A DNA stretch of 64,000 bases from Rhodothermales bacterium (GTDB lineage Bacteria > Bacteroidota > Rhodothermia > Rhodothermales > JANQRZ01). Positions 17,401 through 38,046 of the stretch are shown piece after piece. Positions within the stretch are counted from its first letter, which is position 1. Each line of letters begins with the position of its first letter. The translations under genes were made by a program, and so were the position numbers. Under the pieces are notes generated by a model that did not search any database, was not told the DNA's origin, and saw only the letters and a list, made by a program, of their open reading frames with translations. The DNA lies in the NCBI GenBank assembly GCA_965215145.1, contig OZ244038.1:90257-154256 (forward strand). Direction: 5' to 3'.

Positions 17401-17906
17401 CAGCGTGCGAGGGCGGGGCTGAGCACGGCCGTGTCGGCGTCGAGCACGAGGTAGGGGTAGAGCTCGACGCGGACGCCGCGCTCGTCGTCGAGCTCGCCGA
17501 CGGCGCGGAGGACGAGGAGGCGTCGGTCCGCGAGCCCCGGCCGCAGGACGGCCCGCAGCCCCTCGACCCGCTCGGCGTCCCAGACCTCCGTCTTCGAGAG
17601 GAAGTTCGAGAGGTCGAGCCGGTTGACCCCGTAGGCCCCGACGGCGAACGCCTCGCCGGGCAGCTCCTCCACGGAGACCGGCTCCCACGAGACCAGCCCT
17701 CCGGCGTCGGTCACGTCGCGGACGAGGGCGCGGCTCCACGGCTGGCCGGCCTGCGAAAACATCGGAAAGATGCTGAACGGCCAGAACTCCCCCTCGTGCG
17801 TCGCCACGAGCGCGGCGTAGGCTACGAGTACGCTCAGCAGCACCCGCAGCATCCGGCGCCGAAGCGGCGCCTGTGCCTCGGGGGGCTGTCTCTCCGTGCG
17901 GTCCAT
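17400..17906 (-). CDS. hypothetical membrane-anchored protein
   Basis: Its stop overlaps the start of the downstream membrane-protein gene by 1 nt (ATGA at 17398-17402). One N-terminal helix, LRVLLSVLVAYAALVA. Start could be 17930, 17906 (MDRTERQ) or 17852. GC3-rich. Confidence 0.5.
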   Translation of the reverse strand: MDRTERQPPEAQAPLRRRMLRVLLSVLVAYAALVATHEGEFWPFSIFPMFSQAGQPWSRALVRDVTDAGGLVSWEPVSVEELPGEAFAVGAYGVNRLDLSNFLSKTEVWDAERVEGLRAVLRPGLADRRLLVLRAVGELDDERGVRVELYPYLVLDADTAVLSPALAR

Positions 17907-17950
17907 GGGGAAGGCAATCCGGCCGCCCAAATCTACGCCCTGTCACCGCC

Positions 17951-18940
17951 GTGCGCCCGACCTTCACCCGCCTGGCTCCGCTCCGCGAGCACGTCGGCCG
18001 CGCGCTCGAAACGCGGGGGGGGCAGCGCGCGACGAAGGCGCTCCGGTGGCTCCTGCTCGGCGGCGTCCTCGCGTTCCTCCTCCACCAGCTCGCCGAGGTC
18101 GGCTGGCGGGAGCTGTGGGCGGGGCTACCGCGGACGCCGTGGTTCTACGTGCTCTCGCTGGCGATGTACCTCGTCCTGCCGCTGACGGAGGCCCTCATCT
18201 ACGGGCGGCTGTGGGGCGTGCCGCGCCGCACCCTCGTCGGGCCGAGCCTGCGCAAGCGGGTGCTCAACGCCGACGTCGTCGGGTACTCCGGCGACGTGTA
18301 CCTCTTCGTGTGGGCGAAGCACCGGCTCGGGCTCCCGGACCGGCCGGTGTGGCAGGCGCTGAAGGACAACGCCATCACGTCCTCCGCCGCGTCGCTCTCC
18401 TCGGCGGGGCTGCTGCTCGGCCTGCTCGTCCTCTCCGGCCAAGTGGCCTTTCTCGACCTTCTCGGCGACTGGGACGCGGGGTGGGTCGTGGGCGGCGTCG
18501 CCGTGGCCGCCGCGGCGTTGGGGGTCGTGTTCCGGCAGCGCCTCTTCTCGCTCCCGATGCCGACGGTGGCGGGGCTCCTCGGCGTCCACCTCGCGCGGTT
18601 CACGGTGGTCTACGTGCTCCAGATCCTCCAGTGGTGGGTCGTGCTGCCGGACGCGCCGTTCTCGGTGTGGGCGACGATGCTGGCGGTGATCGTCGTCGCC
18701 AACCGGCTCCCGCTCGTGCCCGCGCGCGACCTCGTCGGGATCGGCGCGGTGCTCGGGATGGCGGACGTGCTGGCGGCCTCGGAGGCGGCCCTCGCGGGGA
18801 TGCTCCTCGCCCGGAGCGCCTTCGACCGGCTGCTCAACGCGGGGCTGTTCGCGGGGACCTCGCTGTGGGAGCGCCGCTCGCCCCCGCTCCCCGTGGCGCC
18901 GCCGGAGGAGATGGCACCGCCGATAGAAGAGGCGGCCTGA
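17951..18940 (+). CDS. flippase-like / lysyl-phosphatidylglycerol-synthase TM-region family membrane protein (tentative)
   Basis: About 8 TM helices. The N-terminal LRWLLLGGVLAFLLHQLAEVGWRELWAGL and the following pattern resemble UPF0104-type proteins. Start uncertain (track GTG/ATG 17873, in-frame GTG 17951). Confidence 0.45.
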   Translation: MRPTFTRLAPLREHVGRALETRGGQRATKALRWLLLGGVLAFLLHQLAEVGWRELWAGLPRTPWFYVLSLAMYLVLPLTEALIYGRLWGVPRRTLVGPSLRKRVLNADVVGYSGDVYLFVWAKHRLGLPDRPVWQALKDNAITSSAASLSSAGLLLGLLVLSGQVAFLDLLGDWDAGWVVGGVAVAAAALGVVFRQRLFSLPMPTVAGLLGVHLARFTVVYVLQILQWWVVLPDAPFSVWATMLAVIVVANRLPLVPARDLVGIGAVLGMADVLAASEAALAGMLLARSAFDRLLNAGLFAGTSLWERRSPPLPVAPPEEMAPPIEEAA

Positions 18941-18961: not shown

Positions 18962-20047
18962 TCAGTCGACCACGAGGAAATCGTAGACGAACGCGCGGCG
19001 GCGGTTGGTCTCGCCGCGCCCGCGGAAGCCGAACACCTCGCCGCCGATGTAGCGCCGCGCCAGCGACTTCCGCAGCCCGCCGAGCTCTTCGAGCGCCGAG
19101 AACTGCATCCGGTCGGCCTCCCGGTTGAGGATCGTGGGGTCGTCGCTCCCCTCGAACCGGACGGCGACCTGCCGGGGCACCGCGACGCCGAGCGCACGCC
19201 GGGTCGAGACGACCTCGATGCTGCTCGGCCGGACGAGCCGGAAGCGCCCGCCCTCGCGGCGCAGCCCGAAGCCGAGCGTCCGCTGTTCGAAGCCGCCGCG
19301 CGGCGAGATCAGCAGGGCCACCTCGGGCTCGTCGCCGTGGTGGACGTACCGGAAGGCGTGGCTGATCAGCTTCGGCGCGAACTCCGTCTGGTACGTGTGG
19401 TCCATGTAGGCCGTGCCGCGAACCCGCTTCTCCTCCCCGTTGATGGTGATGGTGCCGGCCACGCGGGCGTAGGGGATGTGGATAAACAGCCCCATCTCGT
19501 GGTCGCCGAGGCGGAACACCCCGTCGCCCCACGTCATGCCCTCGGCGATGTCGGTGAGCTCGAGGTCCACGACGTACTCGGCGCCGTCCTTGCTCCGGGC
19601 GAAGTAGACGCGGTGCCGGCCGGGCAGCGCGCCCTCGGCGTAGACCTCCGGGTGGATCTGCAGCCGCGCGGGGGTCGAGACGAGGTTCTCGGCCGGGTAC
19701 TGCTTGGCGATCCGGTACGCCTCCCCCCCGAAGTCCGTGACGGCGAACTCGGCGCCGACGGCGGGCGCCATGAAGCTGCCGAAGTTGGCGCGCCGGAGGC
19801 TGAGGAACGCCTCGGTGCCGTCGTCGAAGAGGAAGGTGTAGGACCACGCCTCGTTGAAGGCGCTGCCCCGCGCCCGCTGCGCGCGGAAGTCGGCGGCCGT
19901 GGTGGCGCGGGCCTCGCCCGAGGGGAGCTCGACCGGCTCGTCCCGCGGCGCTAGCGGCCCCGAGCTGTCCAGCGCGCTGGACGGCGCCGCCAGCAGCAGC
20001 GGCAGCAGACCGAGTGCGAGCTTCGTGGTTTTCGGACGTTGCGGCAT
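18962..20047 (-). CDS. secreted hypothetical protein (possibly AttH/CrtC-type lipocalin fold)
   Basis: 361 aa with signal peptide KLALGLLPLLLAAPSSA. GTAYMDHTYQ resembles the G-x-A-W-x-DHEW string of AttH-like proteins. It lies 66 nt downstream of the MMPL gene on the same strand. Confidence 0.5.
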   Translation of the reverse strand: MPQRPKTTKLALGLLPLLLAAPSSALDSSGPLAPRDEPVELPSGEARATTAADFRAQRARGSAFNEAWSYTFLFDDGTEAFLSLRRANFGSFMAPAVGAEFAVTDFGGEAYRIAKQYPAENLVSTPARLQIHPEVYAEGALPGRHRVYFARSKDGAEYVVDLELTDIAEGMTWGDGVFRLGDHEMGLFIHIPYARVAGTITINGEEKRVRGTAYMDHTYQTEFAPKLISHAFRYVHHGDEPEVALLISPRGGFEQRTLGFGLRREGGRFRLVRPSSIEVVSTRRALGVAVPRQVAVRFEGSDDPTILNREADRMQFSALEELGGLRKSLARRYIGGEVFGFRGRGETNRRRAFVYDFLVVD

Positions 20048-23225: not shown

Positions 23226-23455
23226 GCTGGGGGCAGTCCTGATCAGGGATGCGGCCCGGCCGTTCAGCGCGAGGATCCGTCACGCCAGGGGCTACAAGGG
23301 GGCAGGAGGACGCCCGAGGGCACCACCTTCCGCGAGTATATTCGTAGCCTGCCGAGCGCGCACCCTTTTTAAGGGACCGGTCCTTGTTGCCGGCCCGGCG
23401 AGCCGTGGCAAAGATTGCCGCCCGCCGCCCGCCCTCCACCTGCGCCTCCCCGACC

Positions 23456-24676
23456 ATGCCCTCCGTAGAGAAGCTCAACGCCCCCGCCGTCCGCCCCCGC
23501 CGCGAGGCCCCTTCCGAGAAGAAACCCGGCGCGGTGATCCGCTCGTTCCGGGAGTCGGACTGGGAGGAGCTCACGCGGTTCTACCAGAGCCGCTACCGCC
23601 CCGGCTACATCCTCTCGGGGCGCGCCTTCTTCGACTGGTGCTTCGACTCGCCGTTCCGGCCGGACGAGCGCCACGGGCAGCGCCTCGTGGTCGACGAGGG
23701 CCGCCCCGAGGGCGAGCAGATCGTCGGCAAGATCGGCGTGATGCTGTGGCCGATCCAACTCGGCGGAAAGCGCGTGCTGGCGCAGTGCCCGTTCAACACG
23801 TACCTCGACGAGGACTACCGGAAGGGCCTGCTCGCCTACCGACTCCTGACGGGCGCGCACTTCGACCTGCCGTATACGATGGCCCTCAACGTCAAGCCCG
23901 AGGTGATCCGGATGCTGATGCTGCGGCGGGCCGGCGAGAAGTACTCGTGGCTGATGCGCCGCCCCATCCGGGTCCTCGACGCCGAGGCGTGCGCGGAGAT
24001 CGTCGCGTCGTCCCCGCACATCGAGGGGATGGCCGAGACCGAGCGCGCCGACACGCTGGCGGCCGTCGCCGAGGCCGCCGCTCCGGCGGCGCCCGCGCCC
24101 GAGGGCTCCCGGCTCGAGCGCGTCGAGCGGTTCGGGGAGGAGTGGGACGCGGCCTGGGAGCGCATCCGCACGCGCTATGGCGTCACGGCTTGGCGCGACG
24201 CCGCATTCCTCAACTGGCGCTACGCGGACTACCCCTTCGAGATCTACGAGACCCACGCCCTCCGCAGCGCCGACGGCCGCATCACCGGGTTCGTCGCGCT
24301 GCGCGAAGAGACACCACCCTTCGGGACCGTGCTCCGCATCGTGGACTACGTGGCCGAGGACGGCGCCGACGCCGCGCTGCTCGCCCACGTCGAGGCCGTC
24401 GCCCGCGAGCGCGGCGCCGCCTTCATCGACTACGTCTGCTCTGGGCGCCTCAGCGAGGAGGCCCTCGCCGAGGCCGGCTACCGCGAGTGGGAGCCCGCCG
24501 AGGGCGAGAGCCTCTTCCCGATGGACTTCAACCCCCTCCGCTGGCGCACCCACAAGATCGGCGGCTTCTTCGGCCTCCCGGACATCGACGACGGCGCCGA
24601 CCCGACCAACCAGGAGATGCTAGGCGGCGACTTCTACTTCATCAAGGGCGACGCCGACCTCGACCGCGCCTTTTGA
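23456..24676 (+). CDS. hypothetical protein, possibly tandem GNAT-fold acyltransferase
   Basis: About 406 aa from ATG 23456 (track start 23384). IRSFRESDWEELTRFYQ at the N-terminus and a second similar half (ERFGEEWDAAWERI...). No catalytic motif confidently recognised. Confidence 0.45.
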   Translation: MPSVEKLNAPAVRPRREAPSEKKPGAVIRSFRESDWEELTRFYQSRYRPGYILSGRAFFDWCFDSPFRPDERHGQRLVVDEGRPEGEQIVGKIGVMLWPIQLGGKRVLAQCPFNTYLDEDYRKGLLAYRLLTGAHFDLPYTMALNVKPEVIRMLMLRRAGEKYSWLMRRPIRVLDAEACAEIVASSPHIEGMAETERADTLAAVAEAAAPAAPAPEGSRLERVERFGEEWDAAWERIRTRYGVTAWRDAAFLNWRYADYPFEIYETHALRSADGRITGFVALREETPPFGTVLRIVDYVAEDGADAALLAHVEAVARERGAAFIDYVCSGRLSEEALAEAGYREWEPAEGESLFPMDFNPLRWRTHKIGGFFGLPDIDDGADPTNQEMLGGDFYFIKGDADLDRAF

Positions 24677-25174: not shown

Positions 25175-26668
25175 TCAGTCGGCCGGCAGCTTCATCTCCT
25201 CCCCGGCTGGGATCGTCTGGTTCAGCTCAACGCCGTTCATGATGGCGAGGTCGCCCTCGTCCATCCCGAGCGGCATCGTGCGGCCGTCGAGGAGCCGCTG
25301 GAACGGGGTCGCCCGCTGCACGGTCACCACCTCGAGGCGGACGGGCTGGCGGTTGAGGTAGCGGCCGTCGGTCAGTGGGGCGAAGCTCCGCATCGTCCGC
25401 AGAAACTCGCCGCGGTAGGTGCCGAGGCTGCTGGAGCCGGTGAGCCCCATGAAGCGGTACACGTTGTCGCCCTGCTCGATAAAGTAGGCGACGACGCCGA
25501 GCGCGCCCTGCTGGCTGTTGGCCGTGCCGGAGACGGTGTAGGCCGAGAAGCCGTTCACCGTCGTGCCGCCGCTCTCAGTCGCCTGGAAGCCCTGCTGGCC
25601 GGCGAAGGCGCGGCCGGCGGCTGCCGCCGAGCTCTGGTCCTGGGCGAAGGTGAACTCCATGATGGCGGCGCCGTTGGGCTCGGCGATCTGCACGGCGGCG
25701 GCGCCGTTGAAGAGCCCCCACCGGTCGGGGTAGTCAAACACGAAGCGGAGCTCGGGGTGGTAGAACCGGCCGTCCTCGGCGAAGCCCTGCCGGGGGTCGT
25801 TGCCGAGCACGATCCCGTCGATCTGGCTGAGGAACTGCTCCTCGTTGACGGCGGTGCCGGTGTCGTACTGCGCGGCGAGCTGGGGGATGGTCCGCTCGCG
25901 CTCCTCGGGGTCGGGGTGGGTCGAGAGGAACGAGGGCGGGCCGCCGCCGGCTTCCTGGCTGAGCCGCTCGAGCGAGCGGAAGAACGCCGCCGCCTCCGCG
26001 GCGTCGTAGCCCGCGTACTCGGCGTAGGCCACGCCCGCGAGGTCAGACTCCCGCTCGGCGTCGCGGCCGTACTTCAGGAAGAGGAGCTGGACCCCGGTGC
26101 CGCCGTACTCCAGCACGCCCTGCGCCACGTCCCCCCCGCCGACGACGCCGCCGAGGACCGCCGCGCCTAGGAGGCCGAGCTGGCCGAGCTGCGCCTTCGC
26201 CGCGCTGCGGGACTGGTGCCGCGCCAGCACGTGCCCGATCTCGTGGCCGAGCACGACGGCGAGCTGCGCCTCGTTCTCGAGGTGGCTCAGCAGCCCGCGG
26301 GTGACGTAGGTGTAGCCGCCCGGCAGCGCGAACGCGTTGACCACGTCGGTGTCGAGCACGCGGAAGTAGAACGGCGTGTTGCGGATCTCCGCCGGCGTCG
26401 TCGCCTCGCCGTAGGCGCTCGTCTGGAGGACGGCCTGCCCGATGCGGTCCACGTAGGCCGCCAGCCCGGGGTCGTCCACGAGCCCGAACTGCGCGACGAT
26501 CTGCCCGTCGGCCTCTTGCCCGATCTGGACCTCCTGCGCCCAGGTGTAGGCGCCGCGGGTCGTCTCGCCCGTGACGAGGTTCGTGGTCTGCGTGCCGCAG
26601 CCGGCGAGGGGGCCGAGCAGCAGTAGGACGGCGAGGAGGCGGAGGCGTGCGGACAGGAGCGGGATCAT
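25175..26668 (-). CDS. M48-family zinc metalloprotease, lipoprotein
   Basis: 497 aa. Lipobox LLGPLAGC, zinc motif HEIGHVLARH, downstream ERESD. Confidence 0.85.
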   Translation of the reverse strand: MIPLLSARLRLLAVLLLLGPLAGCGTQTTNLVTGETTRGAYTWAQEVQIGQEADGQIVAQFGLVDDPGLAAYVDRIGQAVLQTSAYGEATTPAEIRNTPFYFRVLDTDVVNAFALPGGYTYVTRGLLSHLENEAQLAVVLGHEIGHVLARHQSRSAAKAQLGQLGLLGAAVLGGVVGGGDVAQGVLEYGGTGVQLLFLKYGRDAERESDLAGVAYAEYAGYDAAEAAAFFRSLERLSQEAGGGPPSFLSTHPDPEERERTIPQLAAQYDTGTAVNEEQFLSQIDGIVLGNDPRQGFAEDGRFYHPELRFVFDYPDRWGLFNGAAAVQIAEPNGAAIMEFTFAQDQSSAAAAGRAFAGQQGFQATESGGTTVNGFSAYTVSGTANSQQGALGVVAYFIEQGDNVYRFMGLTGSSSLGTYRGEFLRTMRSFAPLTDGRYLNRQPVRLEVVTVQRATPFQRLLDGRTMPLGMDEGDLAIMNGVELNQTIPAGEEMKLPAD

Positions 26669-26718
26669 GGCTCAGAGGGGGTGGTGGAGCAGGAGGGGAG
26701 ACGGGGAGCGGGCCGGGG

Positions 26719-27867
26719 TCAGACCGCGTCGGCCCGCTCCGTCACCGCCCCGTTAACGACGCAGACCGCCCGATGCTCCGGCGCGTCGAAGTCCACCACC
26801 CCGTCGAAGGGGTCCCGGCGGGCGGCCGTGAGGAGGCTCTGCCCCACGGCGCCGCTCTGGAGCAGGCGGAGGATGACCTCCGAGCGCGCCGGGTCGAGGA
26901 TGCCGAAGACGTCGTCGAGCAGGAGGATGGGGGTCTCGTCCAGGCGGTCCTGGAGGAAGAAGAACTTCGCCAGCTTCAGCGCGAGCCCGAACGTCCGGTG
27001 CTGCCCCTGCGAGGCGTAGGGCCGGACCTCGAAGCCGTTGAGCCGGAGGACCAGCTCGTCGCGGTGCGGGCCGGCCAGCGTCCGCCCGCGCTCGCGCTCG
27101 CGGCGGCGGAGCCGGTCCAGCGCCTCCCCGAACGCCTCGGCGATGGCGGCCTCGTCAGGCTCGGCGTCGAGCGGGACGGCCGTCTGGTACTCCAGCGCCG
27201 GCTCCTCCCCCACGGCCTCGAGCCGCCGGTACGCCTCGTCGAGGAAGCCCCCGAACGTCTCGACGAACCGGCGGCGGCGGGCGATGATGCGCGCGCCGAG
27301 GCCGACGAGCTCCGCCGTCCAGGCGTCGAGCGCGGCGGGGTCCTGCACGCGGCCTCGGCGCCCGGCCAGCAGGAGCGCGTTCCGCTGCTTCAGCGCGCGG
27401 CGGTAGCGGAGGAGGTCCTGGAGGTAGGCCGGCCGTGACTGGCTGAGCGTGTTGTCGAGGAACCGCCGCCGCTCCTCCGGGCCGCCGGCCGTGAGCGCGA
27501 TGTCCTCCGGCGCCAGCACCACCACCGGCAGTACGCCGACGACGTCGGCCAGCCGCTCCAGCGGCGCCTTGTTGAGGAAGATCCGCTTCCCCTCGTCGGG
27601 GACGTAGACGAGCCGCGCCGCCAGCTCCGGCCGGTGCGCCCCCTCGAACGCCCCCTCGACCTCGAAGAACGGGCAGCCGCGCCGGAGGACGTGGGCGTCG
27701 TGGCTGGTGAGGAAGCTCTTCGAGAGGCAGAGGAGGTGGACGGCCTCCAGCAGGTTCGTCTTGCCCGCGCCGTTGGGGCCGTGGAGCAGGTTGACCTTCG
27801 GCGCGAAGGCCACCTCCGTCTCCGAGTGGGCGCGGAACGAGCGGACGCGGAGCGAGCGGAGGTGCAT
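26719..27867 (-). CDS. recF: DNA replication and repair protein RecF
   Basis: 382 aa from ATG 27867. MHLRSLRVRSFRAH...LLHGPNGAGKTNLLEAV, SQGQHRTFGLALKLA, LLLDDVFGILD. Confidence 0.9.
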   Translation of the reverse strand: MHLRSLRVRSFRAHSETEVAFAPKVNLLHGPNGAGKTNLLEAVHLLCLSKSFLTSHDAHVLRRGCPFFEVEGAFEGAHRPELAARLVYVPDEGKRIFLNKAPLERLADVVGVLPVVVLAPEDIALTAGGPEERRRFLDNTLSQSRPAYLQDLLRYRRALKQRNALLLAGRRGRVQDPAALDAWTAELVGLGARIIARRRRFVETFGGFLDEAYRRLEAVGEEPALEYQTAVPLDAEPDEAAIAEAFGEALDRLRRRERERGRTLAGPHRDELVLRLNGFEVRPYASQGQHRTFGLALKLAKFFFLQDRLDETPILLLDDVFGILDPARSEVILRLLQSGAVGQSLLTAARRDPFDGVVDFDAPEHRAVCVVNGAVTERADAV

Positions 27868-27998
27868 GGGGGCAGATCGCGGGGGGAGCATCCTACCCGC
27901 CCGCTGGAGCCCGGTTCACCCGCCCGTGCTGAGGGCGCTACCCACCTACGGGCCTCCGGCCCTATACTGACCCGTCGCTCCTCGCCGCCTCCGATCCG

Positions 27999-30710
27999 AT
28001 GCGCCCCGCTCCGCTGACCCCTCGCTCCGCCGGGCGCGCGTTCGTCTTCCTAGCGGCCTGCCTCGCTCCGCCCCAGGCGGCAGCCCAAACGCAGGCCCGC
28101 TGCGACGCCCTCTACGAAGCCGCCCGCGCCGTCGTCGAGGGCGACCGGGCCGACCAGGACGCCGCCACGTGGAGCACGGCCCTCGACCAGGCGCGGCAGG
28201 CGCAGGCCTGCTACGGCGACCGGCGCGACGCGCAGACGGCCGAGTTGAACGGCCTCGCCCTGGCCCTGCTCTACCGTTTAGGCCGGCACGAGGAGCTCCT
28301 CCAGGAGTATGAGCGCTTTGAGCAGGAGGAGCGCTCTCACGCGCCGGACTCCCTCGTTGCGGAGGCACTCGCGTGGCGGGCCGACGCGCTCGGCGCGCTC
28401 GGCCGACAGGTGGAGGCCCTGGCGAGCAACGTCGACCTCGTGCCCTACCTCCAGGGGCTGCCGCTCCGCGTCCAGGCCCGGCGCCTGATGCAACTCGGAG
28501 ATCGGTTCCGCGCCGTCAACGACGCCCGCTCGGCCATGCGCTACTACGCGGTCGCGGAGTCCCTCGCCGTCGCTCACCGTGCGGACGACCCGCGCCTGGA
28601 GGCGGTAGTAGGGACGGAGTTGCTCCAGCGCGGGCGCGACCTCCTCTTCGCGGCGGGCGAGGACGGGGGCCCGGAGCTCGCTGAGGCCGTCACCCTACTC
28701 AGCCAAGCGCGGGCCCTCTTCGCCAGCCAACCGGGCAGCCGGTTGGACCATACGCAGGCGCTCCTCCGGCTCTCGGCGGCCCGCCGGCTCCAGGGGGACT
28801 ACGAGGGCGCGCTCCGCCTGGCGACGGAGGCCGGGCGCGTCGGAGCGCCGCTCTTCGACCGCGTCGCGGGCCTCGAGAGCTGGATCCGTTCGGAGCAGGC
28901 GATGGCACTGAGCGGCCTCGACCGCCACGAGGAAGCCCGCCGGCTCCTCGAAGACGCGCTGGCCGACGACCGGGCGCGGAGGGACTATGGGGCCGCCGCG
29001 ATCTCGCTCTGGTACCTCGCGCACGTCGAGACCGTCGCGGCCGAGGCGGGCGCCACACCGGACTACGCCAGCGCCGAGGCCCTCCTGCGCGAAGCCATCG
29101 ACCTCCACGAGATCGGCCGCGCCGACCTCGGGATCTCGGAGTGGAGCGCCGCCAGCTTCGAGACCGACCAGGGGCCATACCGGGACCTCGTCCGCCTCAT
29201 GCTCCGTCAAGGCCGGCTCGCGGAGGCCCTCGCCACGCTCGACCTCACGCGGGCCCGCCACCTCCGCGACCTCCGCCTGAGCAACCGCCTGCGGAACGCG
29301 CTGGCACCGGCGGAGCGGCACGCGCTCGACAGCCTGAACGCGGTGCTCGCCGACGCCCGCTACAGCCTCCTCGCGCCGGACCTCTCGACGGAGGACCGCA
29401 GCCGAGCGCAGGGCCGGATCCTCCAGACCGAACGGGCGAGGTCGGCTCTTGTCCAGGCCGACCTCGCCCCGCCGCCGCCGCTCGACATCGGCGCCCTGCA
29501 GGAGCGGCTTCGGGACCGCGAGCAGGTCCTCGTGACGTACTTCTTCGACGGGCCGAACAGCCGCGCCCTCCTCCTGACCCCGGACACCCTCGCCGCCTTC
29601 CCGCTCCCCGCCAGCGCCGACAGCGTGAGCGCGCTGGCTGCACAGATCGCCCCGGACTCCGGCCGGAACACGGAGGACACGGTGCGCCCCGCCTCCCAGG
29701 TGGCGCCGCTCCGCGCTCTCTACGACGTGCTCATCCGGCCCGTCCAGTCCGCCCTCCCCACCGGCGCCTCCCTCGTCATCATCCCCGAGGGCCCAGCGAC
29801 GGGGGTCCCCTTCGCCGCGCTGGTGAGCGGCCCCGGCGCGCGCTACGCCTACGCGGAGCTGCCCTACCTCGTCCACGACCACGCCGTCTCCTTGGAACTC
29901 GCCGCGGCGCTGCTGCTGGACTCCGCCCTGGCGGGACCCACCGAGGCGATCCACACCAGCGAGCCGCTGCTCGCGTTCGGCCGAAGCCGGTTCGGCGGGG
30001 TGGAGTCGGGGGGGCGGCAGGACACGCTGAGCGACCTCCCCCACGTCTCCGACGAGATCCACCGGCTCCAAAGGCGGTTCCCGTCCGGCCGCTTCGCCCT
30101 CAACGACGCGGCGACCGAGGGGGCGTTCAAGCAGGCGGCCCCCTCGGCCCGCGTCGTCCACCTCGCCTCGCACGCCTTCTCCGACCCGACCTACCCCTTC
30201 CACAGCCGGATCGTGCTGAGCGCGGCGGACTCCTCCGAGGACGGCACGCTCTACCTCTACGAGCTCCAGGAGCGCCCGCTTGCCGCCGCACTCGCCGTGC
30301 TGAGCGGGTGCAGCACGGCGCGCGGCGAGTCCCGCTTGGGAGAGGGGATGATCGGGCTCCAACACGCGTTCCGCGCGGCCGGCGCGGCCAGCACCCTCGC
30401 CTCGCTCTGGCAGGTGGACGACCGCGCGATGGCCGACCTCGTGGACCGCTTCTACGGGCACCTCGCCCGCGGGCTGCCGAAGGACCGCGCCCTCCAGCGG
30501 GCCCAGCTGGATTACCTCGACCATCACGACGGCCTCGACGCGAGCCCGTTCTTCTGGGCCGCGCCCGTCCTCTACGGCGACACCGCCCCGCTCGACCTCC
30601 CCGACCGACCGCTCCTCCCGACCGCCGCCTGGCTCGTGCTCGGCCTCGGGCTGATCCTGGCCGCCTTCCTCACCGCCCGCCGCGCCCGCCTCTCTCCATC
30701 CGCCTCGTGA
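27999..30710 (+). CDS. TPR + CHAT domain protein with signal peptide and C-terminal membrane anchor
   Basis: 903 aa. N-terminal AFVFLAACLAPPQAAAQ, then a long helical-repeat region. CHAT core with VVHLASHAFSD (His) and AVLSGCSTARGE (Cys). C-terminal helix AAWLVLGLGLILAAFLTA. Confidence 0.85.
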   Translation: MRPAPLTPRSAGRAFVFLAACLAPPQAAAQTQARCDALYEAARAVVEGDRADQDAATWSTALDQARQAQACYGDRRDAQTAELNGLALALLYRLGRHEELLQEYERFEQEERSHAPDSLVAEALAWRADALGALGRQVEALASNVDLVPYLQGLPLRVQARRLMQLGDRFRAVNDARSAMRYYAVAESLAVAHRADDPRLEAVVGTELLQRGRDLLFAAGEDGGPELAEAVTLLSQARALFASQPGSRLDHTQALLRLSAARRLQGDYEGALRLATEAGRVGAPLFDRVAGLESWIRSEQAMALSGLDRHEEARRLLEDALADDRARRDYGAAAISLWYLAHVETVAAEAGATPDYASAEALLREAIDLHEIGRADLGISEWSAASFETDQGPYRDLVRLMLRQGRLAEALATLDLTRARHLRDLRLSNRLRNALAPAERHALDSLNAVLADARYSLLAPDLSTEDRSRAQGRILQTERARSALVQADLAPPPPLDIGALQERLRDREQVLVTYFFDGPNSRALLLTPDTLAAFPLPASADSVSALAAQIAPDSGRNTEDTVRPASQVAPLRALYDVLIRPVQSALPTGASLVIIPEGPATGVPFAALVSGPGARYAYAELPYLVHDHAVSLELAAALLLDSALAGPTEAIHTSEPLLAFGRSRFGGVESGGRQDTLSDLPHVSDEIHRLQRRFPSGRFALNDAATEGAFKQAAPSARVVHLASHAFSDPTYPFHSRIVLSAADSSEDGTLYLYELQERPLAAALAVLSGCSTARGESRLGEGMIGLQHAFRAAGAASTLASLWQVDDRAMADLVDRFYGHLARGLPKDRALQRAQLDYLDHHDGLDASPFFWAAPVLYGDTAPLDLPDRPLLPTAAWLVLGLGLILAAFLTARRARLSPSAS

Positions 30711-31639
30711 CCGACCGCCCTGCCCTCTTCGACCAGCTCCAGGCCCTCACCACCGAGCAGCGCAACCCCCGCTCGATGCGGATCGACGCCGCCTCGACCG
30801 AGGAGATCCTCCGGATCATCAACGACGAGGACGCCCGCGTCGCCCCCGCCGTGCGGGACCAGCTCCCCTACATGGCCGAGGCCGTGGAAACCGTGGTGGA
30901 CGCCTTCAAGCGGGGCGGGCGGCTGTTCTACGCCGGGGCCGGGACGAGCGGGCGCCTCGGCATCCTCGACGCCGCCGAGTGCCCGCCGACGTTCGGGACG
31001 CCGCCGGAGCTGGTGCAGGGGCTGATCGCCGGCGGCAAGCCCGCGGTCTTCCAGGCGCAGGAGGGCGCCGAGGACCACGAGGAGAATGGGGTCGCCGCGC
31101 TGGAGGAAGCGGGGGTGACTCCGGAGGATGTCGTCTGTGGCATTGCAGCGAGCCGACGGACGCCGTTCGTGGTCGGCGCCGTCAAGCACGCCAAGACCCT
31201 CGGTTGCCCGACGCTGTTCGTGACGTGCAACCCCCGCGAGCAGTTCGACCTCCACGAATGGGTGGACACGGCGATCTGCGTGGCCGTCGGGCCGGAGGTC
31301 ATCATGGGGTCCACGCGGATGAAGAGCGGGACGGCGCAGAAGCTCGTCCTCAACATGCTCACGACCGCGGCGATGGTGCGGATGGGGAAGGTCTACGAGA
31401 ACATGATGATCGACCTCCAGATGACCAACCAGAAACTCGTCGAGCGCTCGAAGCGGATCGTGATGACGGTCACGGGGCTGGACTACGAGGAGGCGGCGCG
31501 GGTGCTGGAGGCGGCCGGCGGCCACGTCAAGACCGCCCTCGTGATGACCCTCGCCGAGGTCGACGCCGACGCGGCGCGGGTCCGGCTGGAGCGCGCCGGC
31601 GGGTTCGTCCGGCAGGCCATCGCGGGAGAAGGCACATAG
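30707..31639 (+). CDS. murQ: N-acetylmuramic acid 6-phosphate etherase
   Basis: 310 aa from GTG 30707 (GTGA overlap with the CHAT gene stop; the track buries it in ORF 29141-31639). LTTEQRNPRS, FYAGAGTSGRLG (SIS), GSTRMKSGTAQK. Confidence 0.9.
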   Translation: MTDRPALFDQLQALTTEQRNPRSMRIDAASTEEILRIINDEDARVAPAVRDQLPYMAEAVETVVDAFKRGGRLFYAGAGTSGRLGILDAAECPPTFGTPPELVQGLIAGGKPAVFQAQEGAEDHEENGVAALEEAGVTPEDVVCGIAASRRTPFVVGAVKHAKTLGCPTLFVTCNPREQFDLHEWVDTAICVAVGPEVIMGSTRMKSGTAQKLVLNMLTTAAMVRMGKVYENMMIDLQMTNQKLVERSKRIVMTVTGLDYEEAARVLEAAGGHVKTALVMTLAEVDADAARVRLERAGGFVRQAIAGEGT

Positions 31640-31640
31640 C

Positions 31641-31758
31641 GGACCCCCCGTTTTTCTTGCGTCGCCTTCGGCTCCGGCTGCGAAAAACCGTCCCCCTTAA
31701 CAAGGGGGACAGCTCGTCCGGCCTTGAGCGCAGCGATGGCCGGACGAGCGGGGGGTCC
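31641..31758. repeat. modular hairpin element, copy D
   Basis: Starts 2 nt after the murQ TAG. Terminal inverted repeats GGACCCCCCG (31641-31650) and CGGGGGGTCC (31749-31758). Internal hairpins GTTTTTC..GAAAAAC, GTCCCCCTTAACAAGGGGGAC and CTCGTCCGGCC..GGCCGGACGAG. Confidence 0.75.
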
Positions 31759-31760
31759 CC

Positions 31761-31776
31761 GGTTTCACGTGAAGCC
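31761..31776. promoter_or_regulatory. weak parS-like sequence
   Basis: GGTTTCACGTGAAGCC matches TGTTTCACGTGAAACA at 13 of 16 positions. It directly abuts element D. Confidence 0.2.
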
Positions 31777-31838
31777 CCCGGACCCGGCGGCGGGCCGAGC
31801 CGTTTGCGCTCTCCCCTCTCCCCGTCTCGATCTCCTCC

Positions 31839-34800
31839 GTGGTCCTCGACACCATCCGCGCTCGCTTCGCCGAGGCGCCATTCGCCCATCAGTTCCGTGC
31901 CGAAGCCCAGCGCCTCCGCCCCGGCGGGGCGCTCCGCCTGAAGAACACCGTCGGCTCGACGCCCGCCTTTGCGATCACCGAAGCCCATGAGGCGCGGGGC
32001 GGGATGCTGCTCTGCCTGCTCGCCGAGGCCGAGTCGGCGGAGTACCTCCGCAGCGACCTCGAACAGCTCCTCGACGGGGGCGAGGTCCTGATCTTCCCCC
32101 CGACGGGCCAGGCGCCGTACGACCGCGAGCGGGTCGCCGAGAGCGCCGCGCTGATCCAGCGGGCCGACGTGCTCGGGCGCCTGCAAGAGGGGTTCGGGGG
32201 GATCGTGGTGGCGAGCGTGGACGCGCTCGCGGAGCTGACGCCGCCGCCGGAGACGGTCGAGACGGAGACGCTCACGGTGCGCACCGGCGACGAGGTCGGG
32301 CCGGAGGCGCTGATGGCGCGGTTCGTCGAGCAGGGGTTCGAGGCGGTCGAGTTCGTCGAGAACCCCGGTGAGGTGGCGCTCCGCGGCGGCATCCTCGACG
32401 TGTACCCCTTCGCCGGGGACTACCCCGTGCGGATCGAGTTCTTCGGCGACGAGGTGGACTCGCTGCGGGAGTTCGACCCGCAGTCGCAGCGGTCCGTGAG
32501 CCGGCTCACGCAGGCCCGCATCGTCCCCAACCTCGAAGGGGAGGCCTACGCCGAGGGCGAGCACGTCGCGCTGCTCGACTACCTCCCGGAGGAAACGCCC
32601 GTCGCGCTATTCGACGCGCTGCGGCTGGAGGAGCACGCGCAGGCGCTGTTCGAGAAGGCTAGTGCTGCCCATGCCGCGCTCGACGACGCCGACGAGCTTC
32701 CCGCGCCTGAGCGGCTGTTCCTCACCGGCACCGGCCTGACCGACCGGCTAGGCCGCTTCCCCCGGCTCCTGTTCGGGACGTTCTCGTCGGACGAGGGCGA
32801 GATCATTGAGCTGGTGGCGAAGCCGCAGCCACCGTTCAACTCCGACATCCGCGGCCTCCGCCAGCACCTCGCCGAGATCAAGCGGCGCGGCTTCGACGCC
32901 TTCATCCTCTGCGACAGCCCGAGCCAGCGGAGCCGCCTGAATGAGTTGCTGGCCCCTGACGAGACCCAGGAACCCGACGCCCGCCTCGCTGTCGAGAGCC
33001 TGCACGAGGGGTTCATCCTCCCCGAGGAGAAGCTGGCCGTCTACACCGACCACCAGGTCTTCAACCGCTACCACCGCCCGACGGCCCGGAAGCGACGCGC
33101 CAAGGGCGGCCTCTCGCTGCGCGACCTCCAGGGCCTCACCCCCGGCGACTTCGTCGTTCACGTGGACCACGGGATCGGGAAGTACGCCGGGCTCCACAAG
33201 ATCCGCGTCCGCGACGTGGTACAGGAGGCGGTCAAGCTCCGGTTCCTCGGCGGCGACGAGCTGTTCGTCAACGTCGGCGCGCTGCACCGGCTCCACAAGT
33301 ACACCGGCAAGGAGGGCCACCAGCCGCGGCTGACGAAGCTCGGCTCGGGGCAGTGGGAGCGCGCGAAGGGGAAGGCCAAGAAGCGCGTCAAGGACCTCGC
33401 CCGCGACCTGATCGCGCTCTACGCCCGCCGGAAGGAGTCGCGGGGGTTCGCCTTCCAGCCGGACTCGACGTGGCAGCACGAGATGGAGGCGAGCTTCCGC
33501 TACGAGGACACCCCGGACCAGGCCACCGCCGCCGCCGCCGTCAAGGACGACATGGAGCAGCCGACGCCGATGGACCGGCTCGTCTGCGGCGACGTCGGGT
33601 TCGGGAAGACGGAGGTCGCCGTGCGCGCGGCGTTCAAGGCCGTCCAGGACGGGAAGCAGGTCGCCGTCCTCGTCCCGACGACGATCCTCGCGCTCCAGCA
33701 CTACGAGACGTTCAGCCAGCGCCTCGCCCGCTACCCCGTCCGCATCGCGCAACTCTCCCGGTTCGTCCCACCCGACGAGCAGAAGCAAGCGCTCGCCGCG
33801 CTCGCCGCCGGCGAGGTCGACATCGTGATCGGGACGCAGCGGCTCGCGGGGAAGAAGGTCAACTTCAAGGACCTCGGGCTACTCATCATCGACGAGGAGC
33901 AGCGGTTCGGGGTGGCCGTCAAGGAGCGGCTGCGGAAGATGCGCGCCGAGGTCGACACCCTCACGCTGACCGCCACGCCGATCCCGCGGACGCTCCAGTT
34001 CTCGCTCCTCGGCGTCCGCGACCTCTCGACCATCGAAACCCCGCCGCCGAACCGGCAGCCGGTCCAGACCGAGATCCACACGTTCGACCGGGAGCTCATC
34101 CGCGACGCCGTCCTCTACGAGGTCAACCGCGGCGGGCAGGTCTTCTTCGTCCACAACCGCGTCCAGACCATCGACGAGATGGCGGCCACGCTGCGGGCGC
34201 TCGTCCCCGACGTCCGGTTCCGCGTCGGCCACGGGCAGATGAAGGCGGCCGACCTCGAGGCCGTGATGCACGGGTTCATCGAGGGGGAGTTCGACGTGCT
34301 CGTGTCCACGAACATCGTCGAGAGCGGGATCGACGTGGCGAACGCGAACACCATCATCATCAACCACGCCGAGCGGTTCGGCCTCGCCGACCTCCACCAG
34401 CTCCGGGGCCGCGTCGGGCGCAGCGACCGGAAGGCGTTCTGCTACCTCCTCGTCCCGAGCGTCCACGCGCTGACGCGCGAGGCGCGGATGCGGCTCCAGG
34501 CCGTCGAGGAGTTCAGCGACCTCGGCAGCGGGTTCCAGATCGCCATGCGCGACCTCGACATCCGCGGGGCCGGCGCGCTGCTGGGGGCGGAGCAGAGCGG
34601 GTTCATCCAGGACCTCGGCTACGAGACGTACCACAAGATCCTGGAGGAGGCCGTCCAGGAGCTGCGGCAGGAGGAGTTCTCGGACCTCTTCGGCGACCAG
34701 CCCCCGCCGAGGACGGAGAGCACGGTCGACGTCGAGACCGACGCCTTCATCCCGGCGACGTACGTCTCGAACAACACCGAGCGGATGAACCTCTACCGCC

Positions 34801-35186
34801 GCCTCGCCGACCTCGACGAGCCGGAGGCGCTGGCGCTGTTCCGGCAGGAGCTCGGCGACCGGTTCGGGCCGATCCCCCCGGAGGTGGACGCGCTGCTGAC
34901 GGCGGCCGAGATGAAGCCGCTCGCCGAGGCGCTGCGGCTGCCGCGGGTGACGTTCAAGAACAGCCGGCTCTTCCTCCAATTCCCCCAGCCCGACGAGGAT
35001 CCGGCGTTCTTCGACGCGGTGATGAACCCGCTCCTCGGCCGGCTCGAAGGGCTCGGCCGGCGGTACGTGCTGAAGGAGTCGAACCGGACGAAGCGGCTCC
35101 GGGCCATCGTGCAGGACGTGCCGGACCTCGCGGCGGCGCGCGCCGTGCTCCAGGCGCTCCAGCCCGCCGAGGCGCTGGCCGCATAA
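31839..35186 (+). CDS. mfd: transcription-repair coupling factor
   Basis: 1115 aa. GDVGFGKTEVA, IIDEEQRFGV, TATPIPRT, QLRGRVGRS, C-terminal TRG/D7 region. Confidence 0.95.
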   Translation: MVLDTIRARFAEAPFAHQFRAEAQRLRPGGALRLKNTVGSTPAFAITEAHEARGGMLLCLLAEAESAEYLRSDLEQLLDGGEVLIFPPTGQAPYDRERVAESAALIQRADVLGRLQEGFGGIVVASVDALAELTPPPETVETETLTVRTGDEVGPEALMARFVEQGFEAVEFVENPGEVALRGGILDVYPFAGDYPVRIEFFGDEVDSLREFDPQSQRSVSRLTQARIVPNLEGEAYAEGEHVALLDYLPEETPVALFDALRLEEHAQALFEKASAAHAALDDADELPAPERLFLTGTGLTDRLGRFPRLLFGTFSSDEGEIIELVAKPQPPFNSDIRGLRQHLAEIKRRGFDAFILCDSPSQRSRLNELLAPDETQEPDARLAVESLHEGFILPEEKLAVYTDHQVFNRYHRPTARKRRAKGGLSLRDLQGLTPGDFVVHVDHGIGKYAGLHKIRVRDVVQEAVKLRFLGGDELFVNVGALHRLHKYTGKEGHQPRLTKLGSGQWERAKGKAKKRVKDLARDLIALYARRKESRGFAFQPDSTWQHEMEASFRYEDTPDQATAAAAVKDDMEQPTPMDRLVCGDVGFGKTEVAVRAAFKAVQDGKQVAVLVPTTILALQHYETFSQRLARYPVRIAQLSRFVPPDEQKQALAALAAGEVDIVIGTQRLAGKKVNFKDLGLLIIDEEQRFGVAVKERLRKMRAEVDTLTLTATPIPRTLQFSLLGVRDLSTIETPPPNRQPVQTEIHTFDRELIRDAVLYEVNRGGQVFFVHNRVQTIDEMAATLRALVPDVRFRVGHGQMKAADLEAVMHGFIEGEFDVLVSTNIVESGIDVANANTIIINHAERFGLADLHQLRGRVGRSDRKAFCYLLVPSVHALTREARMRLQAVEEFSDLGSGFQIAMRDLDIRGAGALLGAEQSGFIQDLGYETYHKILEEAVQELRQEEFSDLFGDQPPPRTESTVDVETDAFIPATYVSNNTERMNLYRRLADLDEPEALALFRQELGDRFGPIPPEVDALLTAAEMKPLAEALRLPRVTFKNSRLFLQFPQPDEDPAFFDAVMNPLLGRLEGLGRRYVLKESNRTKRLRAIVQDVPDLAAARAVLQALQPAEALAA

Positions 35187-36430: not shown

Positions 36431-36820
36431 ATGCCCCGCAAGCCACGCCCATCGGACCAGCCTGCCTTCAAAACGTTCGAGGTCGAGGGCTACGAGGTGC
36501 TCGTCGGCGAGAGCGCGCGCGACAACGACCGCCTCACGTTCGGCATCGCCGAGCCGCTGGACCTGTGGCTCCACGTGGCCGGGACCCCCGGCAGCCACGT
36601 CGTCGTGCGGAACCCGGACGGGGGCGACATACCGCGTTCCATTGTAAAGCGGGCTGCCGAGCTCGCAGCGTTTCACTCGAAGGCGCGGGCGGCACGGGGC
36701 AAGGTCGAGGTCCACGTCTGCCGGGCGTGCGACGTACGAAAACCGCGGGGGGCCAAGTCCGGCTCGGTCACGCTCCGGAACTGGGAGGGCGTCCGGGTCT
36801 ACCCCCCCGACGCCGTCTGA
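36431..36820 (+). CDS. NFACT-R/DUF814 domain protein
   Basis: 129 aa from ATG 36431. VLVGESARDNDRLTF...DLWLHVAGTPGSHVVV...AAELAAFHSKA...VEVHVCRACDVRK. Confidence 0.7.
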   Translation: MPRKPRPSDQPAFKTFEVEGYEVLVGESARDNDRLTFGIAEPLDLWLHVAGTPGSHVVVRNPDGGDIPRSIVKRAAELAAFHSKARAARGKVEVHVCRACDVRKPRGAKSGSVTLRNWEGVRVYPPDAV

Positions 36821-36885
36821 GTAGGCCGGCTGAACCCGCCGGGCCTCCGATTCGTAGGGGGGCAACCAGCCCCCCTTCGCAGCCG

Positions 36886-38046
36886 ATGAAGCTCCTCCCC
36901 GTCCTCGCCTTCCTCGCCCTCGTCGGTTGCCGGCAGCCGGCGCAGTCGCAGGTGCCGCCGGACGGGCCGCCGCCGCAGCGCGTGGATCCACCGCCCGAGC
37001 CCGGCGTCGTCACCGACGGCATCTATTCCGGGCGCCAGACGGCCATCACCCGCGCCGTCGAGACCGCCGCGCCAGCCGTCGTCTCGATCAACGTGATCGA
37101 GGTCCAGCAGGTCCGCGTGCGGGACCCCTTCGCCGGGGACCCGTTCTTCCGGTACTTCTTCGGCGAGCGCGGCGACCGGATCCGGCAGCGGCGGGTGCAG
37201 GGCGTCGGGAGCGGGTTCGTGATCTCGCCCGACGGCTACGTCGTCACGAACGACCACGTCGCCGGCAACGCGAGCGTCATCACCGTCAGCTTCCCCGACG
37301 GGACGGAGCGCGAGGGGCGCCTGATCGGGAGCGACCCCGAGAGCGACCTCGCCCTCGTCAAGGTCGAGACGGACGAGCCGCTGCCGTACCTCGCGTTCAC
37401 CGAGGGCGAGGAGGTCTTCGTCGGTGAGTGGGCCGTCGCGCTGGGCAACCCGTTCGGGCTTTTTGAGGCCGCCGAACCCAGTGTTACGGTTGGGGTTATC
37501 AGCGCTGTCGGACGGGACTTCGCGCCCCAGGGTGGGCGCGTCTTCCGCGACATGATCCAGACCGACGCCGCCATCAACCGCGGCAACTCTGGCGGGCCGC
37601 TCGTGAACGCGCTCGGCGAGGTCGTCGGGGTGAACACGTTCATCTTCTCGCAGTCCGGCGGGAGCGTCGGGCTCGGGTTCGCGGTGCCGGCGTGGCGGGT
37701 CCGGCGCATCGTGGACGAGCTCCAGGAGACCGGGACCGTCGCGCGGCCGGCCCCACCGGGCCTCAACGTCCAGGCACTCAACGCGCGGGCCGCGCGGAGG
37801 CTCGGAATCTCGGTGAGCCAGGGCCTCCTCGTCATGAGCGTCGACGCCGGCTCGCCGGCTGAGCGGGCGGGCATCCGCCCCTACGACGTCGTCCTCGCCA
37901 TCGATGGGGAGACGGTCGTGGACGCCACCACGGCGGGCGCGCTGCTCCGCTCGTTCCGCCCCGGCGACACCATCGCGCTGACGGTGCTCCGCAACGACGA
38001 GGAGCGTGAGGTCCCCCTCGTGCTCGCCGGCCCGGCGGAGGGGTGA
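36886..38046 (+). CDS. HtrA/DegP-family serine protease with PDZ domain, lipoprotein
   Basis: 386 aa from ATG 36886 (residue 108 of the track ORF). Lipobox FLALVGC. Catalytic triad contexts TNDHV, SDLALVKV, GNSGGPLV. C-terminal PDZ-like segment. Confidence 0.85.
   Translation: MKLLPVLAFLALVGCRQPAQSQVPPDGPPPQRVDPPPEPGVVTDGIYSGRQTAITRAVETAAPAVVSINVIEVQQVRVRDPFAGDPFFRYFFGERGDRIRQRRVQGVGSGFVISPDGYVVTNDHVAGNASVITVSFPDGTEREGRLIGSDPESDLALVKVETDEPLPYLAFTEGEEVFVGEWAVALGNPFGLFEAAEPSVTVGVISAVGRDFAPQGGRVFRDMIQTDAAINRGNSGGPLVNALGEVVGVNTFIFSQSGGSVGLGFAVPAWRVRRIVDELQETGTVARPAPPGLNVQALNARAARRLGISVSQGLLVMSVDAGSPAERAGIRPYDVVLAIDGETVVDATTAGALLRSFRPGDTIALTVLRNDEEREVPLVLAGPAEG

Follow-up and report, generated by a model that had tools for sequence, protein, structure and literature searches.

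We analyzed a gene on the forward strand, at positions 27999-30710, of a 64,000-nucleotide stretch of Rhodothermales bacterium DNA (assembly GCA_965215145.1, contig OZ244038.1, positions 90,257 to 154,256), which we refer to as the window. An earlier reading of the sequence (the original prediction) had described the product as an exported, membrane-tethered protein with helical repeats and a caspase-like CHAT domain, encoded in translational coupling with the peptidoglycan-recycling gene murQ. The window is about 71% G+C, a composition that yields long open reading frames (ORFs) in several frames. We take the ORF at 27999-30710 (stop codon included; 903-aa product) to be the true gene because its G+C content at third codon positions (GC3) is 0.93, it has a single start (from the in-frame stop at 27930 as far as codon 83, ATG 27999 is the sole start codon), its product matches the CHAT family, and it has many homologs. 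GC3 and homology led us to reject a 610-aa antisense ORF (28695-30527) as an artefact of high G+C content. The gene, its parts and the adjoining murQ gene are listed below, with the basis of each assignment in parentheses; AF2 denotes an AlphaFold2 model, TPR a tetratricopeptide repeat and pLDDT the predicted local distance difference test score.

27999..30710, + strand, gene for the signal peptide-TPR-CHAT-transmembrane protein (start scan, GC3, Pfam CHAT match, orthologs)
27999..28085, + strand, predicted Sec-type signal peptide, residues 1-29 (hydropathy, charge, conservation)
28074..29453, + strand, TPR-like alpha-solenoid arm, residues 26-485, ~22 helices (AF2, pLDDT mostly >90)
28101..28211, + strand, conserved cysteine pair, Cys35 (28101-28103) and Cys71 (28209-28211) (family conservation)
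29487..30581, + strand, CHAT caspase-fold protease domain; AF2 alpha/beta domain residues 497-860, Pfam PF12770 residues 569-861 (Pfam, AF2)
30171..30173, + strand, codon of catalytic His725, motif HLASHA (VVHLASHAF) (invariant in family alignments)
30309..30311, + strand, codon of catalytic Cys771, motif LSGCSTARG (LSGCSTARGE), followed by conserved GEGMIGLQ (invariant in family alignments)
30615..30707, + strand, C-terminal transmembrane helix, residues 873-898 (core 876-893), and short basic tail RRARLSPSAS, predicted cytoplasmic (hydropathy, AF2)
30707..30710, + strand, GTGA, murQ start codon overlapping the stop codon of the CHAT gene (start-codon scan)
30707..31639, + strand, murQ, N-acetylmuramic acid 6-phosphate etherase, 310 aa (NCBIfam TIGR00274 equivalog)

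The CHAT assignment rests on a match to Pfam PF12770 of 205.8 bits against a cutoff of 24 (E=1.3e-60) that spans profile positions 2-289 of 289. Both His725 and Cys771 are invariant in all three family alignments (10, 50 and 8 sequences). His721 is likewise invariant, in the 10 orthologs as well as in the 50 diverse representatives, and the GEGMxGLQ segment is invariant or nearly so. The HLASHA, LSGCxTARG and GEGMxGLQ motifs are kept across more than 50 diverse members that share 23-45% overall identity, and the His and Cys motifs of the domain are present in distant homologs too. The His/Cys dyad named in the original prediction is present on proper alignment and, judged by this conservation, appears to be under selection. 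As the dyad is invariant across the family, we presume that the enzyme is active, and the TPR-CHAT protein is probably an active protease. A different possibility is that it is a catalytically silent scaffold, a periplasmic interaction platform whose dyad is kept but never aligned for catalysis. DdvA, an anti-sigma protein of M. xanthus, has a dyad in an incomplete, resting active site (PMC11506125), and the loop that follows Cys771 in the AF2 model of our protein (residues 773-782) has low pLDDT and is modelled as flexible. The invariance of the His, the Cys and their surrounding motifs in more than 50 diverse members instead argues for selection on catalysis, and we regard a silent scaffold as very improbable.

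The AF2 model, which was built on the 50-sequence family alignment (overall pLDDT 88.8; predicted template modelling score, pTM, 0.87), lays the protein out as a signal helix (residues 8-21), a solenoid (26-485), an alpha/beta domain (497-860) and a terminal 26-residue helix (873-898). No Pfam TPR model matched the 903-aa protein at E<=0.01, and the orthologs gave weak or faint TPR matches only. A profile of the orthologs matched the solved TPR proteins LGN/Pins, KLC and CTPR at E=5e-11, and the model superposed on the LGN TPR domain in Foldseek with TMt of 0.67-0.69. The helical repeats that had been proposed are thus confirmed by model and profile; in the model they cover about 460 aa (residues 26-485). 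Among family members this arm is the fastest-evolving part of the protein, with a mean pairwise identity of 24-32% versus 44-52% for the CHAT domain.

We derived the topology of the CHAT protein from hydropathy, charge and conservation. Its N-terminus resembles a signal peptide, with a positively charged n-region containing R2, R9 and R13, an h-region AFVFLAACLA (A14-A23; mean Kyte-Doolittle hydropathy, KD, 2.8), a helix-breaking PP, and AAA directly before Q30; a hydrophobic segment is found at this end in 10 of 10 aligned orthologs and in 92 of the 105 full-length family representatives. We infer that cleavage occurs after AAA29. The signal peptide also contains a perfect lipobox-like motif, LAAC (residues 18-21, Cys21; 28050-28061). 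The motif is absent from the orthologs and therefore probably incidental, and for this reason we rejected a lipoprotein reading; LAAC21 could in principle allow signal peptidase II processing or lipidation of this particular protein, a point against the explanation that we favour below.

At the opposite end, a hydrophobic stretch (residues 872-893; KD up to 2.17) is followed by RRAR. This helix and its Arg cluster are found in all 10 full-length orthologs, and the C-terminal segment is present in 101 of the 105 family representatives. When the C-terminus was searched for sorting signals (PEP-CTERM, GlyGly-CTERM, LPXTG and the C-terminal domain of the type IX secretion system), no NCBIfam family matched at E<=0.01. 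In the alignments of 10 and 50 sequences, P864 and W878 are the only residues conserved in this part, and the stretch leading into the helix lacks any conserved PEP, GG or LPXTG motif. We rejected an exosortase, sortase or type IX sorting tag because no model matched, and in the lack of either model or motif we read the C-terminus as a plain stop-transfer anchor, with the RRAR tail placed in the cytoplasm by the positive-inside rule. Thus, the CHAT protein is most likely a type-I, tail-anchored inner-membrane protein whose ectodomain would lie in the periplasm. The signal-like N-terminus, the hydrophobic anchor and the tethered, extracytoplasmic protease-like module of the original prediction all find support in these features.

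The distribution of cysteines fits this location. Cys35 is invariant in both the 10-ortholog and the 50-representative alignments. The ectodomains of the orthologs contain exactly three cysteines, namely the catalytic one and an N-terminal pair, 30-43 residues apart, just after the signal peptide; extra cysteines are located only in the signal peptide or the cytoplasmic tail. Exactly two cysteines at the N-terminal position, spaced 28-49 residues, were found in 93 of 107 representatives, and 77 of the 107 have no other non-catalytic cysteine in the ectodomain. In the AF2 model Cys35 and Cys71 lie in adjacent antiparallel helices (residues 26-48 and 55-72), so that a disulfide between them probably staples the first helical hairpin, as would be consistent with a periplasmic protein. 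Family-wide, the spacing of the pair falls into two classes of ~33-38 (about 35) and ~42-46 (about 43) residues. The gap between the classes is about two helical turns, which suggests two sub-families related by a register shift in the first hairpin.

We then compared the protein with its relatives. A word-indexed homolog search returned one true ortholog (P0002; 45% identity) together with generic TPR-CHAT proteins that are ~30% identical, and a second search, run with a profile of the 50-sequence family alignment, yielded that generic set again. These generic proteins, from Acidobacteriota, Myxococcota, Planctomycetota and other phyla, align with the CHAT domain and with a portion of the TPR arm. 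Unlike the window protein, they are recognised by canonical Pfam TPR models, usually have a length of 1000-1200 aa and in most cases end in GDWR with no anchor. An N-terminal hydrophobic segment was found in 87 of the 120 matches, and 8-10 also have a C-terminal transmembrane segment with a basic tail (a set that includes the window protein and P0002). As most of these close TPR-CHAT homologs, across several phyla, look exported, caspase-like proteolysis in the envelope may be much more widespread than the literature implies.

An exhaustive HMMER profile search, with ~105,000 matches to the CHAT superfamily in all, recovered more than 130 representatives (clusters at 50% identity) at E<1e-80, mostly matching end to end and 860-940 aa long. 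The whole architecture of signal peptide, TPR arm, CHAT domain and transmembrane anchor is common to this family of more than 100 clusters and is seen in Rhodothermales. Family loci from the genome collection belong to Rubricoccaceae, Rhodothermales or metagenome-assembled genomes labelled 'Bacteroidota', and the named isolates, Rubrivirga marina and Rhodothermaceae bacterium RA, represent two families of the order Rhodothermales. NCBIfam has no model for the family. TPR-CHAT proteases as a kind, including one in the periplasm, are already known; what appears uncharacterised is this variant, which joins a TPR arm and a CHAT domain to a predicted cleavable signal peptide, a probable disulfide cap near the N-terminus and an anchor at the C-terminus, and which is fixed at a housekeeping locus with murQ. 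The TPR-CHAT proteases of this locus, predicted from sequence to be periplasmic and tail-anchored, make up a sizeable family of uniform build that is entirely unstudied. The family is stable on the chromosome in Rhodothermales, and cultivable strains (Rubrivirga marina and Rhodothermaceae bacterium RA) carry it.

To our knowledge, bacterial proteases of the CHAT/caspase fold come almost wholly from cytoplasmic defence or developmental systems (Craspase, HetF), and DdvA is the sole characterised case in the envelope. In a Foldseek search of the PDB with the AF2 model, the top matches were Csx29 (E=3e-14), DdvA (E=4e-13) and separases (E=5e-11), all with probability 1.00, followed by isolated TPR domains (LGN). 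The best of these, Csx29 of the type III-E Craspase (PDB 8EEY, 7Y9X, 7Y84), aligned over ~860-900 columns in the same TPR-then-CHAT order, and its protease is described in the literature as allosterically gated. Csx29 works in the cytoplasm as a partner bound to Cas7-11/gRAMP, and its gene lies in CRISPR loci together with Csx30/31, whereas the window protein carries export and anchor signals, and there are no cas genes among the neighbours examined. Separases (C50; PDB 9HMA, 5U1T) share the combination of a helical-repeat arm with a CHAT/caspase-fold protease, but they are much larger eukaryotic proteins of the cytoplasm or nucleus that are under the control of securin and Cdk1.

DdvA (8rw5/8rot) is a precedent in the envelope. 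Its periplasmic TPR-CHAT domain has been solved and is proposed to trigger regulated intramembrane proteolysis (PMC11506125). Like the window protein it has a periplasmic TPR solenoid, a CHAT domain with a His-Cys dyad and a single-pass inner-membrane anchor, with a sequence identity of only ~16% in the structural alignment. DdvA, published in 2024, establishes that CHAT domains can work in the envelope, and together with the 87 of 120 TPR-CHAT matches that look exported it provides a precedent for the envelope location, where the original prediction had known of no obvious one for an envelope CHAT protein coupled to murQ. The two proteins are nonetheless built differently. In DdvA an N-terminal transmembrane segment follows a cytoplasmic zinc-binding anti-sigma domain, and the protein pairs with DdvS, a sigma factor of the extracytoplasmic function (ECF) type, and has a CBASS/CRISPR island under its control. 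The window protein lacks an anti-sigma domain; it begins with a predicted signal peptide, is anchored at its C-terminus and leaves only ~10 residues in the cytoplasm, and its linker between CHAT domain and membrane is ~12 residues long versus ~50 in DdvA.

This relationship raises the question of whether the window protein is a DdvA-like sensor for envelope signalling or defence, in which the TPR arm would detect an external or phage-derived protein and the CHAT domain, as a site-1-type protease, would then cut either its own juxtamembrane linker or a membrane regulator whose gene lies elsewhere, for example an anti-sigma factor, so that the adjacency to murQ would be irrelevant. Besides the position of DdvA among the top structural matches, such a role is consistent with the TPR arm outpacing the catalytic domain in divergence, as expected of a sensor that faces a changing ligand, and with two distant, membrane-anchored TPR-CHAT genes, P0007 (L040:4101-8850) and P0041 (L041:6001-10280), that adjoin ECF sigma genes and not murQ. 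Small unannotated proteins encoded near these two genes may be anti-sigma factors, and a LanC-like/DUF4135 gene of the lanthipeptide type lies nearby in L040. The arrangement at these two loci suggests a wider class of sigma-linked periplasmic CHAT proteases. For the window protein itself, Pfam and NCBIfam found no anti-sigma domain, its N-terminus being the signal peptide, and the cytoplasmic tail is short. No cognate ECF sigma gene lies beside the CHAT gene in the window or in ~45 related loci, where the adjoining genes are recF and murQ; in the same ~45 loci there is no sigma, anti-sigma, CRISPR or other defence gene near it, and the neighbours are housekeeping genes. A PADLOC-DB 2.0 search with the CHAT protein gave BovA as the only match, at noise level (E=0.0062, 13.6 bits), and on this result and the housekeeping context we rejected membership in known defence systems. 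A fixed chromosomal position with vertical inheritance is also unlike the mobility of defence islands, and the short linker to the membrane differs from that of DdvA. We consider a DdvA-like sensor unlikely.

The analysis of the genomic context draws on the following additional features.

25175..27891, - strand, block of an M48 peptidase gene (25175-26668) and recF (26719-27891), divergent from the CHAT gene (domain matches)
27892..27998, no strand assigned, 107-bp intergenic region between the divergent recF and CHAT genes, presumed promoter of the CHAT-murQ unit (gene map)
31638..31662, + strand, weak terminator-like hairpin with T-rich tail directly after the murQ stop codon (consensus match only)
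31839..35186, + strand, mfd (transcription-repair coupling factor), the usual downstream neighbour

The assignment of murQ in the original prediction is secure (TIGR00274, 388 bits versus a cutoff of 302; PRK05441, 418.8 versus 168). When we scanned 207 bases of this frame upstream of the MurQ homology, the GTG at 30707 was the one start codon present, and as the sole candidate it makes the GTGA overlap at 30707-30710 real. To examine the conservation of this arrangement, we mapped the M48, RecF, CHAT, MurQ and Mfd proteins of the window on 11 loci from genomes and 26 from metagenomes, with six murQ-anchored look-ups in addition. The order of M48 and recF on the minus strand and CHAT and murQ on the plus strand is conserved wherever contigs reach, with mfd usually next, and M48-recF synteny is kept in every locus that extends far enough. 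An intact murQ directly follows the CHAT gene on the same strand in 37 of the 42 CHAT loci with downstream sequence. The adjacency is conserved in relatives, the dyad is present and the N-terminus resembles a signal peptide, the three points on which the original prediction had said it would stand or fall.

The distance between the CHAT stop and the murQ start varies across the 37 loci: the genes overlap in 11, are separated by 0-30 nt in 10, by 31-100 nt in 12 and by more than 100 nt in 4 (maximum 328 nt). With 33 of 37 junctions no more than 100 nt apart, overlaps included, these distances make co-transcription plausible family-wide, and the CHAT gene and murQ are most likely co-transcribed as a two-gene unit. 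Translational coupling, which the original prediction had proposed, is probable in this genome, with ribosomes likely to re-initiate on murQ at the GTGA overlap; an overlap of this kind marks some members, the window protein included, and not the family.

The two genes can also be found apart. At three loci (L003-L005) the CHAT gene is directly followed by mfd, with no murQ at the locus. In L002 and L014 (L002:8678-9066, L014:3861-4249) a decayed, frameshifted murQ, recognisable only over ~residues 172-307, lies between an intact CHAT gene and mfd. The CHAT genes of L002-L005 are intact and keep the dyad, and L002 and L014, set beside the closely related L003-L005, look like one lineage in the process of losing murQ. 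Conversely, two Rhodothermales-like contigs, L045 (5.6 Mb) and L047, have M48-recF and murQ-mfd without a CHAT gene, with MurQ proteins 73-75% identical to that of the window and only 110-228 bp between murQ and recF (L045, 6774-7000; L047, 5892-6000). These two loci imply that the CHAT gene was either inserted between murQ and its promoter or lost from that place.

The conserved arrangement could reflect functional coupling to peptidoglycan turnover, in which the enzyme would act on wall-associated substrates (wall-bound or wall-binding proteins, or peptides released by turnover) or sense wall fragments through its TPR arm, and would be co-expressed with MurQ so that envelope remodelling and catabolism of N-acetylmuramic acid 6-phosphate rise together. 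We know of one characterised CHAT protein with a cell-wall connection, HetF. HetF of Anabaena PCC 7120 is a membrane CHAT protease and divisome component that interacts with FtsI and is tied to septal peptidoglycan synthesis (PMC8406250); the substrate known for it, PatU3, regulates cell division as well as heterocyst differentiation (PMC9457339). HetF resembles the window protein, by description only, as a membrane-associated CHAT protease that also bears TPR and transmembrane segments, but its CHAT domain is N-terminal (residues 1-555) and precedes the transmembrane and TPR segments, and it has no linkage to murQ.

Several further points favour such coupling and weigh against a link that consists of a shared operon alone. 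The adjacency persists down to ~31% CHAT identity, many junctions are tight or overlapping, and the CHAT-murQ pair is steadier than murQ-mfd, holding in five loci where the downstream synteny breaks (L001, L020, L022, L024, L030). Such constancy goes beyond what must be expected of a neutral arrangement, so there is scope for a true functional link. The survey loci are partly redundant (L023/L024, L028-L030, L031/L032, L002/L014), all belong to a single taxonomic order and have their flanking synteny in common, which limits their statistical weight for coupling and for independence alike.

On the other side stands the separability of the two genes in both directions (L002-L005 and L014; L045 and L047). 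No other peptidoglycan-recycling gene (anmK, murK, nagZ, ampG or amidases) is present in any locus examined; we rejected a peptidoglycan-recycling cluster, as the neighbours are recF, the M48 peptidase, mfd, methyltransferases, an SDR and a thioredoxin-like protein. All of the loci descend vertically within a single lineage and keep the flanking block, so the adjacency may be inherited and not selected, and MurQ is cytoplasmic whereas the protease would be periplasmic. As far as we know, clan CD peptidases are endopeptidases of proteins and peptides with no known activity on peptidoglycan stems. The pairing has no counterpart in the searchable literature, in line with the original prediction, which knew of no obvious precedent; its suggested tie to N-acetylmuramic acid 6-phosphate metabolism is weakened by the two-way separability and the lack of recycling genes nearby. 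We judge functional coupling to peptidoglycan turnover to be a minority prospect, and more doubtful still is the stronger form, a real pathway in which sensing of wall damage or turnover, or the processing of wall proteins, is mechanistically tied to MurNAc recycling. The conserved murQ operon offers a cheap and concrete hypothesis for a link to cell-wall turnover, and if the pathway were real, cell-wall homeostasis in bacteria would gain its first assigned enzyme of the caspase fold.

Identities to the window proteins at the same loci are 31-57% for the CHAT protein, 65-83% for MurQ (65-85% over all the MurQ orthologs compared), 51-69% for RecF and 48-68% for the M48 peptidase, by which measure the CHAT protein evolves fast relative to its neighbours. 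The explanation that we hold with slightly more confidence than doubt is that the CHAT gene has been passed on vertically as a lineage-specific part of the Rhodothermales chromosome, that its product is a periplasmic cysteine protease of the TPR-CHAT class (separase/Craspase/DdvA), exported by Sec, anchored in the inner membrane with type-I topology and gated by a ligand, and that its link to murQ is a shared operon. According to this proposal, the signal peptide would be removed after AAA29 and the C-terminal helix would stop transfer, leaving the RRAR tail in the cytoplasm. The ectodomain of ~840 residues would hold the CHAT domain ~12 residues off the membrane surface with the TPR solenoid pointing outward, its first hairpin stapled by the putative Cys35-Cys71 disulfide. 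The comparison with separase, Craspase and DdvA suggests that a protein or peptide ligand binds to the fast-evolving TPR arm and that the His725/Cys771 dyad, presumed active, cuts a specific envelope protein, which would make the whole a ligand-gated envelope endopeptidase; both the gating and the protein substrate are carried over from these relatives. The CHAT gene would share a transcription unit with murQ because it fills the slot between murQ and the promoter region divergent from recF, an arrangement that may provide co-expression with cell-wall turnover and, on our reading, is not an obligate biochemical partnership. For the CHAT-murQ pair we thus favour a shared promoter over shared chemistry.

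The promoter role of the recF/CHAT intergenic region (27892..27998) follows from the gene map. A scan for sigma-70 consensus sites around the CHAT locus returned none, which is uninformative, as expected for a Bacteroidota-like lineage, and comparison of recF-CHAT with recF-murQ intergenic regions of relatives found no alignable promoter and was uninformative as well. The Rfam scan of 27500-32000 gave only a noise-level match and no element. Three terminator-like sites were observed in the region versus 0.8 expected, and the hairpin at 31638..31662 is possibly the end of the two-gene transcription unit. The 199-bp spacer between murQ and mfd contains terminator-like hairpins on opposite strands (31638-31652, +; 31692-31707, -), which may form a bidirectional terminator that parts murQ from mfd.

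Among the related loci, extra neighbours include methyltransferases, an SDR, a thioredoxin-like protein and UCP028175. A small gene of the UCP028175 family lies between murQ and mfd in Rubrivirga marina (L043:8075-8557) and in the CHAT-less L047 (7127-7645) and is not present in the window. The M48 metallopeptidase of the window (25175-26668, - strand; 497 aa) is weakly BepA-like (NCBIfam, 120 bits versus a cutoff of 570). Constantly paired with recF in the conserved block, it would be a second envelope protease, two genes from the CHAT protease. About 1.4 kb downstream of mfd, the window encodes an HtrA/DegP-like serine protease with Trypsin_2 and PDZ domains (36565-38046, + strand). Five further ORFs with high GC3 (17873-18940, 18962-20047, 23384-24676, 40317-41693 and 41995-43512) encode unannotated proteins of 355-505 aa, for which Pfam gave no match at E<=1e-5.

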